A stretch of 64,000 nt of DNA from a bacterium (GTDB lineage Bacteria > Patescibacteriota > Minisyncoccia > Phycocordibacterales > CAIZLB01), in contig JAIXXV010000032.1 in the NCBI GenBank assembly GCA_027490575.1, forward strand, positions 13,211-77,210, read 5' to 3'. Every line of letters begins with the position of its first letter. The stretch's first letter is position 1. The notes below the pieces were generated by a model. The model was not told where the DNA came from. It saw only the letters and a program-made list of their open reading frames with translations, and searched no databases. The position numbers were made by a program, and so were the translations under genes. Below, in pieces: positions 12,382 through 15,684 of this stretch.

Positions 12382-12465
12382 CAATTCTTAATCCTTAATT
12401 CTTAATTTGCCGGTTCTGTTAATTCTGCGGGCAATTGTCAATTGCTAATTACTAATTACTAATTG
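12382..12465 (+). repeat. 7-nt periodic spacer, TAATTNN/CAATTNN class (12 heptads)
   Basis: caattct taatcct taattct taatttg ccggttc tgttaat tctgcgg gcaattg tcaattg ctaatta ctaatta ctaattg. The array overlaps the antiporter stop codon. Confidence 0.7.
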
Positions 12466-13832
12466 CTCACCTCCAACTTCCTCGCAACCCATTTAGTCAA
12501 AGGCGGTTGTATCACCAGAGTCATAATTATCACCCACATACCTATTGAGATAAGCATTTCAGGGTTACCAATATCGTATTTTGTCAAAAGACCACTGTAT
12601 GCAACTTGCACAAGAAGTACTGCTGGGATAACGCCAGTCTCTCGGACCCATGACATGAAGAGAAGCTCGCGAGTGTTAAGATCAATCTTCTTTGAAAAGA
12701 AACCGAGTGATAGAAATACTGAGGCAGGACGCACGATGAACATAAAGACAAGTCCGGCGAGTATTCCAAACCAAGCGTATTGTAGTAGCATTTGCACATT
12801 GACCAATGCTCCTAGGAGTATAAAGATACTTGGCTTTGCAATCCCCTCCACCAGCTGATTGAAAAATGTTTCTGTCTTGTGCACTTTTTCGTTCAATACA
12901 ACTAGAAGCCCTGCGATGAATGATGCTAAGTAACCACTTCCGCCAAACAGTACCGCAAATGCATATGCCATAATAGGGATAGCGATGAAGAAACCGATGT
13001 CGGCGTGGCACTCCGCACGCATTACCCTTTGTCTAACAAAAAATCGGATTGCAAAGAATCCGATAATACCAACTATTGACCCTACTACTAGCTCTTTTGA
13101 TAGGAAAATCATTGATTCCATAGAGACTAGTGCGCTAATACCTTGTGACATGTGCGTAAAAGCCCCTGCTCTTTCTACATACGTGATAAATGCCAATGTG
13201 ACCAAAGTACCAACCACGTCCGTCAATGCACTTTCTGAAACCAAGATGTCTTTGATACGGTCTTTCTTGAGCTTAAGCTCTTTGAACACAGGGATGATGG
13301 CTGCTGGATCAGTCGATGCAAGTATTGCCCCCAAAAGTAGTGCTAGCGACACGGACATTGTCATACCTGTCACTGTGCCGAGGACCGATAGACCTTGTGC
13401 CATAAAGAGAGTAGATGCCACAAGTCCGATGAAAGATAGTAGTACGGTAGGTAAAACTATTTTTCTAAATGATGAAAACGATATCTCCAAGCCTCCACCA
13501 AAAAGTATATATACCGCTGATATAGTAACTATCATGTTTAGAGCTGCGCTGTTTTCTATAAGTGGTTCCAACAAGTTGTGCATACTTAAACCTATAAACA
13601 AGGCAACTAGAAACGATGGAAATATTGTCCCCCTAGAGAGCGAGTGACAGATGGTACCCAGAAGAAACATTCCTCCTATCAAAAACAGTGGGGTTATACC
13701 CCCTACATGATCCACAGGAATCATTTCCGAATACTGTACAAACAATGCATTGAATATTGCAAAAACCGTAACACTGGTCAAAAGTATAAATGATGATGAA
13801 TGTCTCTTAAGCTTGCTTAGTTTGGCTATCAT
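12459..13832 (-). CDS. Monovalent cation:proton antiporter (CPA1/NhaP-type Na+/H+ exchanger)
   Basis: 457 aa with about 11-12 TM segments. The ASTDPAAIIPVF motif is typical of the Na+/H+ exchanger family. Confidence 0.8.
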   Translation of the reverse strand: MIAKLSKLKRHSSSFILLTSVTVFAIFNALFVQYSEMIPVDHVGGITPLFLIGGMFLLGTICHSLSRGTIFPSFLVALFIGLSMHNLLEPLIENSAALNMIVTISAVYILFGGGLEISFSSFRKIVLPTVLLSFIGLVASTLFMAQGLSVLGTVTGMTMSVSLALLLGAILASTDPAAIIPVFKELKLKKDRIKDILVSESALTDVVGTLVTLAFITYVERAGAFTHMSQGISALVSMESMIFLSKELVVGSIVGIIGFFAIRFFVRQRVMRAECHADIGFFIAIPIMAYAFAVLFGGSGYLASFIAGLLVVLNEKVHKTETFFNQLVEGIAKPSIFILLGALVNVQMLLQYAWFGILAGLVFMFIVRPASVFLSLGFFSKKIDLNTRELLFMSWVRETGVIPAVLLVQVAYSGLLTKYDIGNPEMLISIGMWVIIMTLVIQPPLTKWVARKLEVSN

Positions 13833-14024
13833 ATTGGTGATTAATTTTTAATATATCTTTTCTAAAAAATCAAAAAACCACATGGCGCGCGGCTTTTGTA
13901 TCTGAGGAGAAAATGATCGATGAGCTGATTTGAGATCAGACCACCAACTTTCTCAAACTGAGTTCTAAACCTTTTAGTTACATCAGTACTCAAGTCGTGG
14001 AGGCTATAATTATATTGATTCTTG

Positions 14025-14157
14025 TGGGCGGTAGAGGATTCGGTCCTTACAGGACCAGTACAGGTTTCCTATTTTCTCAAAGCTCGACAAATCTCGCTTT
14101 TCAAAAATATAGGATAACCTTTTCGAATCCTCCAGAAGCGATGCTTCTGCCGCCTAT
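14025..14157 (-). other. tRNA-fragment mosaic folding into a ~130-nt rod; carries a copy of the tRNA-Val 3' end
   Basis: 14023-14042 is identical to 14179-14198, the last 18 nt of tRNA-Val plus 2 flanking nt. ggcggtagaggattcg (14027-14042) pairs with cgaatcctcc...gccgcc (14124-14154). Inner helices are aggttatcctat/ataggaaacct and the hairpin cagaagc/gcttctg. Confidence 0.35.
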
Positions 14158-14180
14158 AACCGTACTTCGTACGATCACTG

Positions 14181-14253
14181 TGGGCGGTAGAGGATTCGAA
14201 CCTCTGACATCAACAACGTCAATGTTGCGCTCTACCAACTGAGCTAACCGCCC
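14181..14253 (-). tRNA. tRNA-Val (anticodon GAC)
   Basis: The reverse complement folds as a cloverleaf: GGGCGGT TA GCTC AGTTGGTA GAGC G CAACA TTGACGT TGTTG ATGTC AGAGG TTCGAAT CCTCT ACCGCCC A. 73 nt, CCA not encoded. Confidence 0.9.
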
Positions 14254-14361
14254 ATGCCCTGTTTTTGTCTAGTTTTACAGCTTTATATCTTACCTTTCAG
14301 TAAATATATCGACTAGTAATTTTTAACAAAACGCATTTTTTAGTGTAGCAAATACACGTAA

Positions 14362-15195
14362 TTATTTCAACATAAATTGACACATTATTGCCATATGATC
14401 TGAAACATTACCTACAACCTTTGCTTTGTCTAGGTAAAACCTATTTCCTGAGAACATACAGTCTACCACTAGCATTAACCCGCCTGCTCTATGCAAGGTT
14501 TTATCAATTGTGGTTTTACAATCTTTTGGAACATTGTCGTTAAGGATACTGGACAAGCTATCGTACAGACACTTCCCTCTTGGTGAATTCAGGTCACCGC
14601 AAAGTATCGTGTTTTCTAAATCTTTTTTTGATAAAAAGTTTATAAGATTTTCATAATGACGCATTTGTTCACCTGTAACCCCCCCTTTACCAGACCAAGT
14701 AAAGTGAATATTTGCTATTGAAAAAGACGTTTCCCTTTCCTTCCCATTTACTACAAAATTTGCCAAAGTTAAATTTCTTCGATAAGTTTCCGAGTGTTTA
14801 TTTTTGTCATGGTAAACAATCTCTTTATCTGGAAAATCTCCATAGGAAAAAATCTCACTTGAGCCTATTTTGTGTTTTGAAAGTATCAATGTCCCTGATT
14901 TTGAGAAATCATACTTTTCTAAAGCACCTTTTTCTTCATTTACTACTATTTCATAATGATTCATCAGCTTACTATAAAGAAAATCACCTGTAGGCGTCAT
15001 GGTCTTTTCCTTGTAAGGTAAAATGGTTGCCGGCGAAAATAAATGGTGATGCATATTCAAGGAATGAGAGAGGTAATCTATATCTTTCTCAAAGACCTCC
15101 TGTAGACAAGCAACGTCTGGGTTTTGCTCTTTTATGAAAGGTATAAATTTGTCAAAATGCTTATCCAGTTCAATGTTTAATGTTATAACTTTCAT
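14362..15195 (-). CDS. Endonuclease/exonuclease/phosphatase (EEP) family protein
   Basis: N-terminus MKVITLNIE...VACLQEV and a C-terminal SDH motif (NVSDHMAI) are typical of the EEP fold. 277 aa. Confidence 0.7.
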   Translation of the reverse strand: MKVITLNIELDKHFDKFIPFIKEQNPDVACLQEVFEKDIDYLSHSLNMHHHLFSPATILPYKEKTMTPTGDFLYSKLMNHYEIVVNEEKGALEKYDFSKSGTLILSKHKIGSSEIFSYGDFPDKEIVYHDKNKHSETYRRNLTLANFVVNGKERETSFSIANIHFTWSGKGGVTGEQMRHYENLINFLSKKDLENTILCGDLNSPRGKCLYDSLSSILNDNVPKDCKTTIDKTLHRAGGLMLVVDCMFSGNRFYLDKAKVVGNVSDHMAIMCQFMLK

Positions 15196-15322: not shown

Positions 15323-15371
15323 GGCCCTATCGTCTAACCTGTTTAGAATATAGCGGACACGGCCTTTTCAA
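15323..15371 (+). pseudogene. Duplicated 5' half of tRNA-Glu with a 16-nt replacement in the D-loop
   Basis: ggccctatcgtctaac (15323-15338) and ggacacggccttttcaa (15355-15371) are identical to tRNA-Glu positions 1-16 and 22-38. ctgtttagaatatagc replaces ggtta. There is no T-arm or 3' acceptor. It is followed by the self-complementary ccttttca a tgaaaagg. Confidence 0.7.
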
Positions 15372-15403
15372 TGAAAAGGTAGGTTTGGTAAAAAACAATA
15401 TAT

Positions 15404-15475
15404 GGCCCTATCGTCTAACGGTTAGGACACGGCCTTTTCAAGGCTGTAATCGGAGTTCGATTCTCCGTAGGGTCA
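15404..15475 (+). tRNA. tRNA-Glu (anticodon TTC)
   Basis: Cloverleaf: GGCCCTA TC GTCT AACGGTTA GGAC A CGGCC TTTTCAA GGCTG TAAT CGGAG TTCGATT CTCCG TAGGGTC A (G2-U71 wobble). 72 nt. Confidence 0.9.
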
Positions 15476-15584
15476 CAGATTTTAACGAACAAAGTGAGTA
15501 TAAAATCGTGATGCAGGGGTACTTCATATTTTCGAGCTTGCAATGAAAATATGTTAGTACCAGCTGCGCACAGATTTTAACGAA
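15474..15584 (+). repeat. 16-bp direct repeats CACAGATTTTAACGAA flanking a 79-bp hairpin-containing insert at the tRNA-Glu 3' end
   Basis: DR1 at 15474-15489 overlaps the last 2 nt of the tRNA. DR2 is at 15569-15584. The insert contains the perfect inverted repeat catattttc...gaaaatatg. Confidence 0.6.
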
Positions 15585-15684
15585 ACAGTTCTCAAGCATA
15601 TAAATCTTTTTTTGCTTACATAGCTATCACAATCATAAGTAAAAAGGGGTTGAAAATCAGATTATTTGATATACTTACTTCTAT

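Follow-up and report, generated by a model that had tools for sequence, protein, structure and literature searches.

A candidate protein-less insertion element directly behind tRNA genes of Patescibacteria

The tRNA-Val locus and its empty counterparts

The window (the whole 64-kb stretch of DNA that was analysed) carries an intact tRNA-Val(GAC) gene on its minus strand, placed by ARAGORN and by the Rfam tRNA model (71 bits) with its 3' end at 14180 or 14181, and the gene has no encoded CCA, with CAG following A73. Behind it lies a small folded element (Table 1), and the flanking genes encode a Na+/H+ exchanger and an Exo_endo_phos protein. The sole terminator-like hairpin occurs at 13873-13897, about 125 nt beyond the element, which probably lies inside the tRNA-Val transcription unit. 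The 20-mer TGTGGGCGGTAGAGGATTCG is present as two exact copies, as the first-pass annotation of this DNA had noted; the window contains no third match at ≤3 mismatches, and any match at all appeared in 0 of 100 shuffles. Based on the placement of tRNA-Val by both tools, the upstream copy corresponds to C56-A73 plus CA.

The MFE fold of 14020-14160 on the minus strand reaches -56.5 kcal/mol, compared with -32.4 ± 3.7 kcal/mol for shuffled sequences (z = -6.5; 0 of 200 as good), and the plus strand folds nearly as well (z = -6.3), as expected of a palindromic rod. Every helix that had been described from the letters alone is part of this fold, including GGCGG/CCGCC, CAGAAGC-AUC-GCUUCUG, GAGGAUUC/GAAUCCUC, a long internal stem, and GGUCC-UGUAA-GGACC, and the palindrome CGTAC-TTC-GTACG is found in the spacer. 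The element is closed, again as proposed, by an acceptor-like helix stacked on T-arm sequence (5 + 8 bp, with arm X1 pairing at 5 of ~8 positions), though family-wide the corresponding helix P1 is paired in 67% of cells and the distal 3' arm is often decayed. The last C of hairpin P5 doubles as the C56 equivalent and is the first base of the downstream repeat.

The further suggestion that the plus strand at 14122-14141 resembles the 3' end of another tRNA did not hold, as this stretch is an antisense arm in which neither tool calls a tRNA; the plus-strand TTCGAATCCTC (14122-14132) is fully reverse-complementary to the tRNA's T-loop and T-stem 3' strand (inverted repeats I7 and I14). The proposed check with ARAGORN and Rfam RF00005 returned only tRNA-Val and tRNA-Glu, with nothing in 14023-14178 even at E values up to 10. 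A co-transcribed tRNA-like RNA had also been envisaged, and of this idea the co-transcription is in keeping with the probable transcription unit, but the likeness to a tRNA is not, there being no T-loop and no match to a tRNA model. The element may still be a minihelix on which RNase P or the CCA-adding enzyme would act.

Table 1. Coordinates of the parts of the tRNA-Val element in the window
Feature	Coordinates	Strand	Basis
tRNA-Val(GAC), intact	14181..14253	-	ARAGORN, Rfam
Left (upstream) repeat copy, C56-A73 + CA	14179..14198	-	exact repeat, tRNA placement
Spacer GUGAUCGUACGAAGUACGGUUAUA	14155..14178	-	sequence; missing from empty sites
Spacer mini-hairpin CGUAC-GAA-GUACG	14161-14173	-	sequence; equals the spacer hairpin of the family
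Arm X1 GGCGG, 5' strand of P1	14150..14154	-	fold, model alignment, family analysis
Hairpin P2 CAGAAGC-AUC-GCUUCUG	14133..14149	-	fold; family covariation
Arm X3 GAGGAUUCGAA, 5' strand of P3	14122..14132	-	inverted repeats I7, I14
Long stem P4 AGGUUAUCCUAU...AUAGGAAACCU, variable tip	14062..14120	-	fold; family covariation
Conserved unpaired junction GUACU between P4 and P5	14057..14061	-	alignment A1
Hairpin P5 GGUCC-UGUAA-GGACC	14042..14056	-	fold; family covariation
Right (downstream) repeat copy, pairing with X3 (P3) and X1 (P1)	14023..14042	-	repeat, fold, alignment
156-nt block missing from L006 and L007	14023..14178	-	three-way alignment, covariance-model match

The comparison of occupied and empty sites that the first-pass annotation had called for bears out an insertion. 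Two related loci (L006 and L007), with antiporter proteins 91% and 76% identical to that of the window, respectively, have an empty site in which tRNA-Val (in L006 identical to that of the window) runs directly into the flank that follows the right repeat copy in the window. A three-way alignment has a single clean gap of 156 columns between nearly identical flanks, and since tRNA-Val of both relatives lacks the block, the window holds a precise insertion of 156 nt, the boundaries of which can be slid by ≤20 nt because of the repeat (equivalently, 14043-14198). A second such pair was found at tRNA-Glu, where the empty site (L008) reads GGGTCACCATTT and the occupied site (L011) has GGGTCAC followed by AGGTCAAA on the left and GGGTCAC followed by CATTGACGG on the right.

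Across 38 distinct insertions of the wider family (see below) with a repeat of ≥16 nt, the modal repeat is 19 nt and extends from C56 through C74, which separates the first C of an encoded CCA from the remaining CA; the right copy goes on with CA in at least 8 of the 38. The duplication measures 16-24 nt in most of these insertions and a few repeats reach 32-33 nt, at least one of them owing its length to a second copy in tandem. As in integrative elements, direct repeats of the 3' part of the tRNA flank the insert and the tRNA gene is left intact.

Family size, location and conserved structure

The loci of the family sample were fished with a conserved 20-22-nt motif, which in part builds the constancy of P5 into the sample. 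The motif matched 16 times in genomes (15 in MAGs labelled by their submitters as Patescibacteria lineages and one labelled 'bacterium') and at least 120 loci in metagenomes, and a covariance model recovered 165 homologous copies from ~0.9 Mb of the loci obtained in these scans. Among the copies found, the family appears, from these labels, to be restricted to Patescibacteria. The 165 copies (about 115-190 nt) are small, non-coding and multi-copy, as are MITEs. The window element matches the model at 14023-14168 (98.2 bits; E = 2e-26), and with filters off no copy was found in the window besides the one at tRNA-Val; the region after tRNA-Glu at 15474-15584 scores 7 bits.

Linkage to tRNA genes was counted for the 143 copies with enough upstream sequence, using a tRNA end ≤120 nt upstream as the cut-off, and 102 of them have a same-strand tRNA just upstream (about 10-50 nt). 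Counted by motif, 33 anticodon species are occupied among the matches listed, two copies lie directly behind tmRNA genes, and one locus (L131) holds six copies. The spacer folds at -8 kcal/mol or better in 51 of 85 family spacers and is often terminator-like in copies other than that of the window. Rfam searches returned only tRNAs for the window at gathering thresholds and for L131, nothing relevant in 13800-14400 at E values up to 10, and for the best-scoring member (L075) only Clostridiales-1, at 14 bits compared with a gathering score of 48. A literature search that included the motif sequence itself found no description of such an element, and a small, protein-less, folded family behind tRNA genes is apparently undescribed so far.

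Read on the tRNA strand, the members share a layout of a spacer hairpin, two arms split by P2, a conserved three-way junction core with P4, GUACU and P5, and a second tRNA 3' end. Paired cells amount to 87.5% of the alignment compared with 61.7% in shuffles, none of 500 of which matched the observed values, and both sides have changed in 42 of the 45 pairs; when the 3' partners are slid, pairing falls to 38-48%. The strongest helices are P2 (92.6% of cells paired; 8 of 8 pairs covary) and P4 (90.7%; 16 of 16), with P1 the least conserved (67% compared with >90% for P2 and P4), and covariation is also present in a structure-blind MAFFT alignment. The GUACU columns are invariant or nearly so (alignment A1) and are kept in matches found by the model only, in which the stem of P5 covaries (e.g., GAACC/GGUUC and GAAGC/GCUUC) around a preserved UGUAA loop. 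G.U pairs outnumber A.C mismatches 294 to 105 overall and 137 to 36 in P4 alone, a bias of ~3:1 that points to the tRNA-sense strand as the folding strand. From covariation and wobble bias we infer that the element functions as RNA, though a folded single strand of DNA would look similar.

A by-eye resemblance to a hammerhead-type three-way junction (GAAA before P4) was discarded, as there is no CUGANGA segment and no Rfam match. The MFE fold of tRNA-Val together with the element invites another reading, in which the block is an intron of the T-loop, inserted between positions 56 and 57 and spliced out, with the downstream repeat as the real 3' exon. In this fold the 5' acceptor and T-stem 5' strands of the tRNA pair with the distal repeat, and the whole resembles a tRNA whose T-loop holds 156 extra nt; Patescibacteria are also rich in tRNA introns (PMC13011429). 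An intron is nevertheless very unlikely, as the tRNA in front of the element needs no splicing to be complete, most family members have a degenerate downstream copy, and in-silico splicing of the 165 copies (~98,700 joins) yielded no tRNA other than at loci where an intact one already stands upstream. There is also no match to a group I or group II model, and ~100 nt falls below the size of known self-splicing cores.

Arms matched to the local tRNA

Each copy carries two arms that are Watson-Crick complementary to the 3' strand of its own tRNA, one to the acceptor 3' strand and one to the T-stem 3' strand and T-loop. In the window, X1 is the complement of positions 67-71 of the acceptor 3' strand and X3 the exact reverse complement of T54-C64 of tRNA-Val (11/12 against the complement of 54-65), with P2 dividing the two arms at the boundary of acceptor and T-stem. 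Across the family, 52 of 87 copies have an X3 that complements tRNA positions 54-65 without a mismatch, and 68 of 87 have one that agrees at ≥11 of 12 positions. The elements thus contain split antisense segments complementary to the insertion target, a complementarity that is observed and for which a guide role is predicted. The quality of the arm match is not correlated with decay of the downstream repeat (rho = -0.08), and a supposed trend for arms to improve as the repeat decays was rejected on this value.

Where tRNA stems contain G.U pairs, arm sequence agrees with the 3'-strand complement in 28 of 37 cases and with the tRNA 5' strand in 3 of 37. The block is therefore not a collapsed tRNA copy made of the 5' acceptor and T-stem 5' strands. 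A retrovirus-like primer-binding site for mature tRNA was likewise rejected, as the arms reach genomic trailer bases and not a CCA complement (by eye, e.g., L024 and L026).

The arm analysis also bears on the suggestion of decayed att sites, in which the block would be a scar or pseudogene left by old integration and excision, or a degraded tandem duplicate of tRNA-Val, with neither function nor conserved pairing. A direct repeat of a tRNA 3' end and a block without an anticodon arm are what such a scar would leave, and decayed remnants of elements of this kind are probably present after tRNA-Glu (15474-15584). This reading is already contradicted by the model score, the covariation and the arm analysis: the repeat is perfect (20/20), the block scores 98 bits against the family model, its homologues stand behind 33 tRNA species among the motif matches listed and have covarying helices, and the arms complement the 3' strand rather than copy the 5' strand of the tRNA. 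A scar is hence highly improbable. What stands of the att-site idea is the insertion signature at the 3' end of tRNA-Val, with its empty sites in L006 and L007, and what falls is the decay, since the copy is intact.

In copies with a 3' arm that matches the tRNA at ≤9 of 17 positions, P2 and P4 are still 95% and 92% paired, respectively, and an intact core despite a decayed flanking duplication suggests, on this sequence evidence, an RNA useful to the element or to the cell. If useful to the cell, the element could be a trailer RNA, a cis-acting part of the tRNA transcription unit kept by selection, with possible roles as a module for 3'-end processing or termination, in quality control of read-through via the anti-tRNA arms, or as a decoy for the acceptor/T-arm helix. 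Beyond the intact core, such a trailer is consistent with arms that track the upstream tRNA whatever the state of the 3' arm, with common spacer hairpins, and with a predicted fold of the co-transcript in which the arms can pair with the 3' strand of the tRNA itself. Inheritance would be mainly vertical or by homologous recombination, and loss would occur by deletion between the repeats. Natural competence of some Saccharibacteria (PMC10187176) makes a spread by recombination plausible.

Possible mobility, candidate mechanism and known systems

The distribution of cores counts against a host-serving trailer. A core and its nearest neighbour share a tRNA species in just 8 of 90 cases, cores 92-98% identical are found at Gly-CCC, Glu-CTC and Ser-GGA, and those closest to the window element are at Arg-CCT (89%) and Leu-GAG (86%), such that core kinship is decoupled from tRNA identity, the pattern expected of a mobile parasite. 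Further, close relatives lack the element at the same tRNA, only some tRNAs of a locus have one, unlike family members are stacked in tandem behind a single tRNA (L142, L089 and L131), and a generic processing signal would need no tRNA-specific arms. Taken with the points in its favour, a trailer RNA is considered an unlikely explanation.

Mobility could instead depend on a tyrosine integrase whose gene lies elsewhere. The block would then approximate an attP with a crossover in the T-loop and travel as double-stranded DNA, much as cis-mobilisable or satellite elements do, and P4 and P5 would serve as palindromes for protein binding. The repeat from T-loop to 3' end, the regenerated tRNA and the use of both tRNA and tmRNA genes are in line with this, and the repeat of the family matches a T-loop class of integrase sites reportedly described by Williams in 2002. 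The tandem arrays look as if one integration had followed another, decay being greatest in the outermost repeat (L142), and a 3.7-kb island with a KilA-N gene (L134) has the same repeat together with a partial core at its boundaries.

The search for a linked protein offers no support for such an enzyme nearby. The element encodes no protein (no ORF and no intron or ribozyme match in Rfam), and the window copy has 136 non-repeat bases, too few for a gene, and no integrase inside. When the ORFs within 4 kb of all 165 copies were clustered, neither an enrichment of recombinases or reverse transcriptases nor a protein-coding relative of the element that could be its autonomous partner was found, and no integrase lies in or beside the copies. 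A phage or plasmid origin was rejected, the motif being absent from the viral contigs, phage records and plasmid records searched, and the same result weighs against an integrase-borne element. Duplex protein-binding sites would conserve sequence, not compensatory changes or a 3:1 bias of G.U over A.C, classical att sites have no use for antisense arms, and a 156-bp duplex circle is a poor substrate for recombination. An integrase-dependent miniature att element is, like a trailer RNA, considered unlikely.

The best reading of the data is a non-autonomous insertion element specific to tRNA 3' ends that acts as a co-transcribed structured RNA. We put a probability of roughly 0.5 on the 156-nt block being an intact and fairly recent insertion of this kind, belonging to a Patescibacteria-wide, protein-less family of about 130-160 nt directly behind tRNA and tmRNA genes. 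The element would be co-transcribed with its tRNA, act as a structured RNA and multiply by site-specific insertion at tRNA 3' ends, with the choice of target set by base-pairing of the tRNA-matched arms or tail with the tRNA gene and the chemistry provided by an enzyme supplied in trans. The 19-nt duplication would fit staggered nicks at 55/56 and 74/75, as in target-primed copying, and a recombinase is equally conceivable. More tentatively, the elements may represent a class of protein-less, RNA-guided, tRNA-specific transposons in which the tRNA-matched duplex of the RNA recognises both strands of the 3' end of a tRNA gene (the sense strand by the antisense arms, the template strand by the sense tail), insertion takes place between C74 and C75 with a 19-nt duplication, and the arms are re-matched for each tRNA by means of a host or unlinked enzyme. 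Several observations count against the best reading: the many terminator-like spacers would reduce transcription past them into the element, base-pairing is no strict guide, X1 arms often being imperfect in fresh insertions, and a repeat that spans T-loop and 3' end has precisely the form of integrase-type att sites.

Known systems share parts of this design. Genomic islands and prophages at tRNA and tmRNA genes, with a tyrosine integrase and a T-loop crossover, are alike in inserting into the 3' part, in the repeat from T-loop to 3' end, in the intact gene, in targeting tmRNA and in forming tandem arrays behind one gene. They are kilobases long, whereas the element has about 130-160 nt with no integrase or cargo, and it adds covarying single-strand structure and additional antisense copies of the target on either side of a hairpin. 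MITEs, Correia elements of Neisseria, palindromic elements of Rickettsia and att-bounded cis-mobilisable elements are likewise short, non-coding, multi-copy and rod-like, occur in reduced genomes and vary in presence between relatives. In contrast to MITE-type repeats, the element targets one functional site, the tRNA 3' end, in >30 tRNA species, its inverted segments change with the local tRNA instead of being matched to transposase ends, its duplication is 19-20 nt rather than the 2-10 bp of MITEs, and no autonomous partner was found for it.

The attC sites of integrons and the attP of CTX-phi (XerCD) are also folded single strands in which two inverted segments rebuild the duplex of a chromosomal target, and structure is conserved above sequence as in parts of the element. 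They have a known recombinase and are not retargeted to many genes, whereas the element has no linked recombinase and combines a strongly conserved core sequence with variable arms. Group II introns (EBS-IBS) and the IS110 bridge RNA share hairpin-separated antisense segments complementary to one continuous stretch of target, directly adjoined by the insertion. The element is much smaller, lacks ribozyme domains, an intron-encoded protein and an adjacent recombinase gene, and carries a sense copy of the target in cis, with any guide function predicted from the pairing. Lastly, mascRNA-type 3' modules, the tRNA-like domain of tmRNA and viral tRNA-like structures place an acceptor-like helix with a discriminator base on a T-stem and are co-transcribed with or fused to another RNA, as predicted for the element, which differs in having no analogue of a T-loop or D-loop, in escaping tRNA models and in that its acceptor-like helix is the least conserved of the family.

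If the reading holds, a family of unannotated structured elements sits at the tRNA genes of Patescibacteria, a group with small genomes that makes up much of bacterial diversity; the copies are invisible to current annotation and strip the encoded CCA from tRNA genes. A gene-less element of 130-160 nt fitted to >30 tRNA 3' ends could reveal a new, pairing-based choice of insertion site. As some Saccharibacteria are naturally competent and genetically tractable, the predictions would be directly testable.

The clustering of neighbouring ORFs returned recurrent LepA-like, YraN/UPF0102, CCA-adding-enzyme-like and DivIC-like clusters, of which the YraN and DivIC clusters were named by Pfam matches and the LepA-like and CCA-adding-enzyme-like clusters by eye from sequence. 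These clusters follow particular tRNA neighbourhoods and thus reflect synteny rather than linkage to the element. A tblastn search of the window with four proteins from neighbour clusters, including a Xer-like recombinase and a 227-aa HTH protein, returned no match, and the HTH protein was dismissed as a linked partner because its association is with the 5' side of tRNA genes instead. The copies themselves also yield ORFs that are spurious, and 13 loci with one such ORF came up as a cluster.

The insertion behind tRNA-Val

The window holds two tRNA genes, tRNA-Val(GAC) and tRNA-Glu(TTC), and the 20-mer TGTGGGCGGTAGAGGATTCG occurs in it exactly twice, with no match in shuffled sequences (coordinates are tabulated below). 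The copy within the tRNA gene comprises C56 to A73 of tRNA-Val plus CA, the stretch 14020-14160 folds on the tRNA strand into a rod (-56.5 kcal/mol, z = -6.5), and TTCGAATCCTC on the plus strand reverse-complements the T-loop and T-stem 3' strand of tRNA-Val without a mismatch; the first-pass annotation had described repeat, rod and plus-strand sequence accurately throughout. Identical copies of the locus, with the same intergenic spacing, are present in five other assemblies.

The annotation had also called for a comparison of occupied and empty sites, and relatives with homologues of the neighbouring exchanger (L006, 91% identity; L007, 76%; L008, 70%; L011, 69%), from MAGs named Paceibacterota, Taylorbacteria and Parcubacteria, supply the empty state. 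The tRNA-Val of L006 and L007 joins ...CCGCCCACA|AGAATCAATATAA directly, without the element, and in the window this same flank comes after the downstream repeat copy. A three-way alignment of these loci has a single clean 156-column gap between nearly identical flanks, and the tRNA-Val of L006 is identical to that of the window. Only 106-130 nt separate tRNA-Val from the exchanger gene in L008 and L011, with no match to the family model described below, and these sites are therefore taken as empty. The 156-nt block in the window is a precise insertion at the 3' end of tRNA-Val.

A family at tRNA 3' ends in Patescibacteria

A homologous piece in L007 adjoins tRNA-Glu, and its inverted arm fits tRNA-Glu, not tRNA-Val. 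A 22-nt motif derived from the window and L007 copies matched 16 places in a one-genome-per-species collection, 15 in MAGs carrying submitters' (possibly loose) labels of Patescibacteria lineages (Saccharibacteria, Paceibacterota, Parcubacteria, Nomurabacteria and Taylorbacteria) and one labelled only 'bacterium'. A 20-nt motif matched at least 120 metagenome contigs and zero viral contigs, and phage and plasmid records had no match to the motif. A covariance model built from 32 copies found 165 copies in the fetched loci and, with filters off, one only in the window. Upstream sequence of 200 nt or more was available for 143 copies, and in 102 of these a tRNA on the same strand ends within 120 nt before the model start, usually at 10-50 nt; the rest are mostly second members of tandem arrays or lie behind tmRNA-like 3' ends, and a tmRNA gene directly precedes the element in two loci (L061 and L128). 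By a motif-based count, 33 anticodon species stand before copies. Rfam searches of the window and family members, a check proposed in the first-pass annotation, matched tRNAs but no family for the element. The element encodes no protein, neither recombinases nor reverse transcriptases are enriched within 4 kb of copies, and tblastn of the window with four neighbour proteins, including a Xer-like recombinase, gave no match.

On the tRNA strand, the 3' end of the upstream gene itself is followed by a spacer (with a stable, often terminator-like hairpin in 51 of 85 cases), the arm X1 (complement of the acceptor 3' strand), the hairpin P2, the arm X3 (complement of the T-stem 3' strand and T-loop, always ending ...UCGAA) and a core consisting of the long stem P4, the unpaired junction GUACU and P5 (GGUCC-UGUAA-GGACC), directly after which a second tRNA 3' end begins at the T-loop. 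In 38 distinct insertions whose repeat still spans at least 16 nt, the modal repeat is 19 nt, C56 to C74; the left-hand copy reads N73-C and then spacer, and the right-hand copy runs on with CA to a complete encoded CCA in at least eight. The same layout is directly visible at tRNA-Glu, empty in L008 and occupied in L011. These boundaries and this pair place the insertion immediately behind N73 or, in a gene that encodes CCA, between C74 and C75, and the occupied tRNA gene is left dependent on the CCA-adding enzyme. A T-loop intron is contradicted by in-silico splicing of the copies and is highly improbable. The nearest paper deals with group I introns located at position 35/36 in tRNAs of Patescibacteria and reports the phylum to lack group II introns (PMC13011429).

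GUAC(U) recurs unpaired at the P4/P5 junction (J4/5), in some P4 tips and in the loop of an extra hairpin (GCG-UACU-CGC) after P5 in tmRNA-associated copies, and occurs twice in the window spacer; GAGC-N3-4-GCGA(A/G) recurs family-wide in P4 tips and spacers. Both may be protein-binding or kissing motifs.

Covariation, antisense arms and proposed mode of spread

In a model-based alignment of 109 copies, standard pairs fill 87.5% of cells as against 61.7% in shuffles and 42 of 45 pairs change on both sides, pairing values reached by no shuffle; sliding the 3' partners lowers pairing to 38-48%. A model-fitted alignment is biased towards its model, and a structure-blind MAFFT alignment used alongside gave the same covariation in P3 and P4 (one pair, for example, is AU 13, CG 12 and GC 7 times). 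The constancy of P5 is partly by design, because its exact motif was the search key; in copies found only by the model, P5 covaries (GAACC/GGUUC, GAAGC/GCUUC, GAUCG/CGAUC) and the UGUAA loop is retained. G.U pairs exceed A.C mismatches (294 versus 105 overall, 137 versus 36 in P4), and the folding strand is therefore the tRNA-sense strand, more likely as RNA than as single-stranded DNA.

The arms follow the tRNA. Of 87 copies, 52 have an X3 that is the exact reverse complement of upstream tRNA positions 54-65, and 68 have one that agrees in at least 11 of the 12 positions; X3 tracks the tRNA rather than the decayed downstream copy, which is perfect over 57-73 in only 19 of the 87. At G.U positions of tRNA stems, 28 of 37 cases show a Watson-Crick complement of the 3' strand in the arms and three the tRNA 5'-strand base; the arms are thus 3'-strand complements and no remnant of a tRNA duplication. 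Decay of the downstream copy brings no drop in arm match (rho = -0.08), and where half of that copy is lost, P2 and P4 are still 95% and 92% paired. Since the arms track the tRNA and the core stays paired, the element proper, comprising arms and core, appears to be under selection in place, unlike the distal duplicated segment.

The decayed att site proposed in the first-pass annotation is thus not borne out: the window holds an intact copy of a conserved family with covarying helices and tRNA-matched arms. A scar or pseudogene, contradicted by the family-model match, the covariation and the arms complementary to the 3' strand, has very little probability. An integrase-driven 'bare att site' would account for the arrays, for tmRNA genes as targets and for how the repeats are built, but leaves the covariation, strand bias and antisense arms unaccounted for and is considered unlikely.

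Presence differs among close relatives at both tRNA-Val and tRNA-Glu, and L142, L089 and L131 each have a tandem of unlike family members behind a single tRNA, the arms of every member fitting that tRNA. Core similarity is nearly independent of the target: the tRNA species is shared with the nearest P4 neighbour in 8 of 90 cases (random expectation 3%), cores at Gly-CCC, Glu-CTC and Ser-GGA are 92-98% identical, and those closest to the window's are at Arg-CCT (89%) and Leu-GAG (86%). Two copies in L020 have an identical spacer-X1-P2-X3 module and unrelated P4 and P5, so modules recombine. A trailer RNA serving the host would explain conservation of the core in place, but not why presence is patchy, why copies pile up in tandem or why core and target are decoupled, and is likewise improbable. 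Copies are locally clustered in L131, L126, L142 and L089; L131 (14.5 kb) has six model matches in 14 kb, three in tandem behind tRNA-Pro.

The reading preferred here, with a probability of about 0.5, is a non-autonomous mobile element acting as a structured RNA, whose matched arms or tail would locate tRNA 3' ends and whose chemistry would be provided in trans. The observed 19-nt duplication could, speculatively but in keeping with the geometry, result from nicks staggered between 55/56 and 74/75. As the window element precedes the sole terminator-like hairpin and its own spacer hairpin is weak, it should be co-transcribed with tRNA-Val. Two nearly equivalent folds are predicted for the co-transcript: in the first, pairing between arms and downstream copy forms the minihelix of the first-pass annotation; in the second, the arms take up the tRNA's own 3' strand and the downstream copy pairs with the tRNA 5' strands. 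The element is filed among site-specific insertion elements at tRNA 3' ends; a literature search, motif sequence included, found no paper describing it, and we could find no described counterpart to its RNA-like architecture with target-matched antisense arms. If the arms do act as guides, it would constitute a new class.

Related elements and neighbouring features

In L134, a complete element and the repeat stand behind tRNA-Glu(CTC); after them come ~3.6 kb with five small ORFs on the same strand (one for a KilA-N protein), then a partial core and the same 18-nt repeat once more. This segment, in which no integrase was seen, is a relative that carries cargo or else an island using the same site. 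A sister subfamily has P4-GUAC-P5 in common but lacks antisense arms, and its 5' module differs (GAGAAAUG-hairpin-CAUUUCKCAAGACC). Two of its copies abut tRNA 5'-end fragments (e.g., GGAGAGATGGCAGAGTG|...), a hint at a mirror-image association with the D-loop side.

Coordinates of features in the window and in loci with family copies
Feature	Location	Strand	Remark
ORF, 286 aa	10362-11222	plus	
ORF, 266 aa	11449-12249	plus	
Na+/H+ exchanger gene	12459-13832	minus	neighbour
Terminator-like hairpin	13873-13897		
Conserved stretch	~13900-14020	minus	~120 nt
Element	14023-14178	minus	156 nt
20-mer, downstream copy	14023-14042		
20-mer, tRNA copy	14179-14198		
GUAC(U), twice	14161-14173		spacer
tRNA-Val(GAC)	14180/14181-14253	minus	
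Exo_endo_phos protein gene	14362-15195	minus	neighbour
tRNA-Glu 5'-half fragment	~15323-15372	plus	
tRNA-Glu(TTC)	15404-15476	plus	
16-nt repeat, first copy	15474-15489	plus	
Region with probable family remnants	15477-15590	plus	
16-nt repeat, second copy	15569-15584	plus	
Tandem pair	L126:5215-5505		identical copies
Tandem pair	L142:4641-4944		unlike copies
Tandem pair	L089:763-1054		unlike copies
Element with ~3.6 kb	L134:4215-8036		
Sister subfamily	L095:1207-1319		
Sister subfamily	L113:799-913		
Sister subfamily	L112:6106-6224		
Sister subfamily	L131:7830-7906		
Sister subfamily	L089:2808-2923		
Sister subfamily	L020: about 1430-1500	minus	
227-aa HTH family	L055:6518-7195		among others
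227-aa HTH family	L060:5335-6012		
227-aa HTH family	L084:1439-2122		
227-aa HTH family	L104:4836-5510		
227-aa HTH family	L118:5217-5900		
227-aa HTH family	L131:439-1116		
227-aa HTH family	L135:3176-3856		

Just behind the window's tRNA-Glu(TTC), the 16-nt direct repeat CACAGATTTTAACGAA encloses CATATTTTCGAG...GAAAATATG, which resembles P4, and the tRNA has no encoded CCA (GGGTCAC|AG...), like occupied sites and unlike L006 and L008, where its end reads GGGTCACCA. The family model scores only 7 bits in this region, which probably holds what is left of one or two decayed family copies. A partial second tRNA-Glu 5' half (GGCCCTATCGTCTAAC, 16 unrelated nt, GGACACGGCCTTTTCAA) lies ~30 nt upstream of the real gene and is also found in L006. 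The stretch between the tRNA-Val site and the terminator-like hairpin, upstream of the exchanger gene, is conserved in L006 and partly in L007, contains the helix CCACGACUU/AAGUUGGUGG, has no Rfam match and may be a leader or small RNA. The 286-aa and 266-aa ORFs, without Pfam match, lie between thioredoxin-reductase-like and exchanger genes that are adjacent in L006, L008 and L011, and the pair therefore looks like a separate insertion.

A 227-aa protein family that combines an N-terminal HTH of transposase type with a GIYWGEG motif, and for which no family in PDB or NCBIfam and no copy in the window was found, is encoded immediately 5' of a same-strand tRNA gene in 9 of 12 loci (the tRNAs vary: Arg, Met, Gly, Trp), and may be a separate element targeting the 5' flank of tRNA genes.
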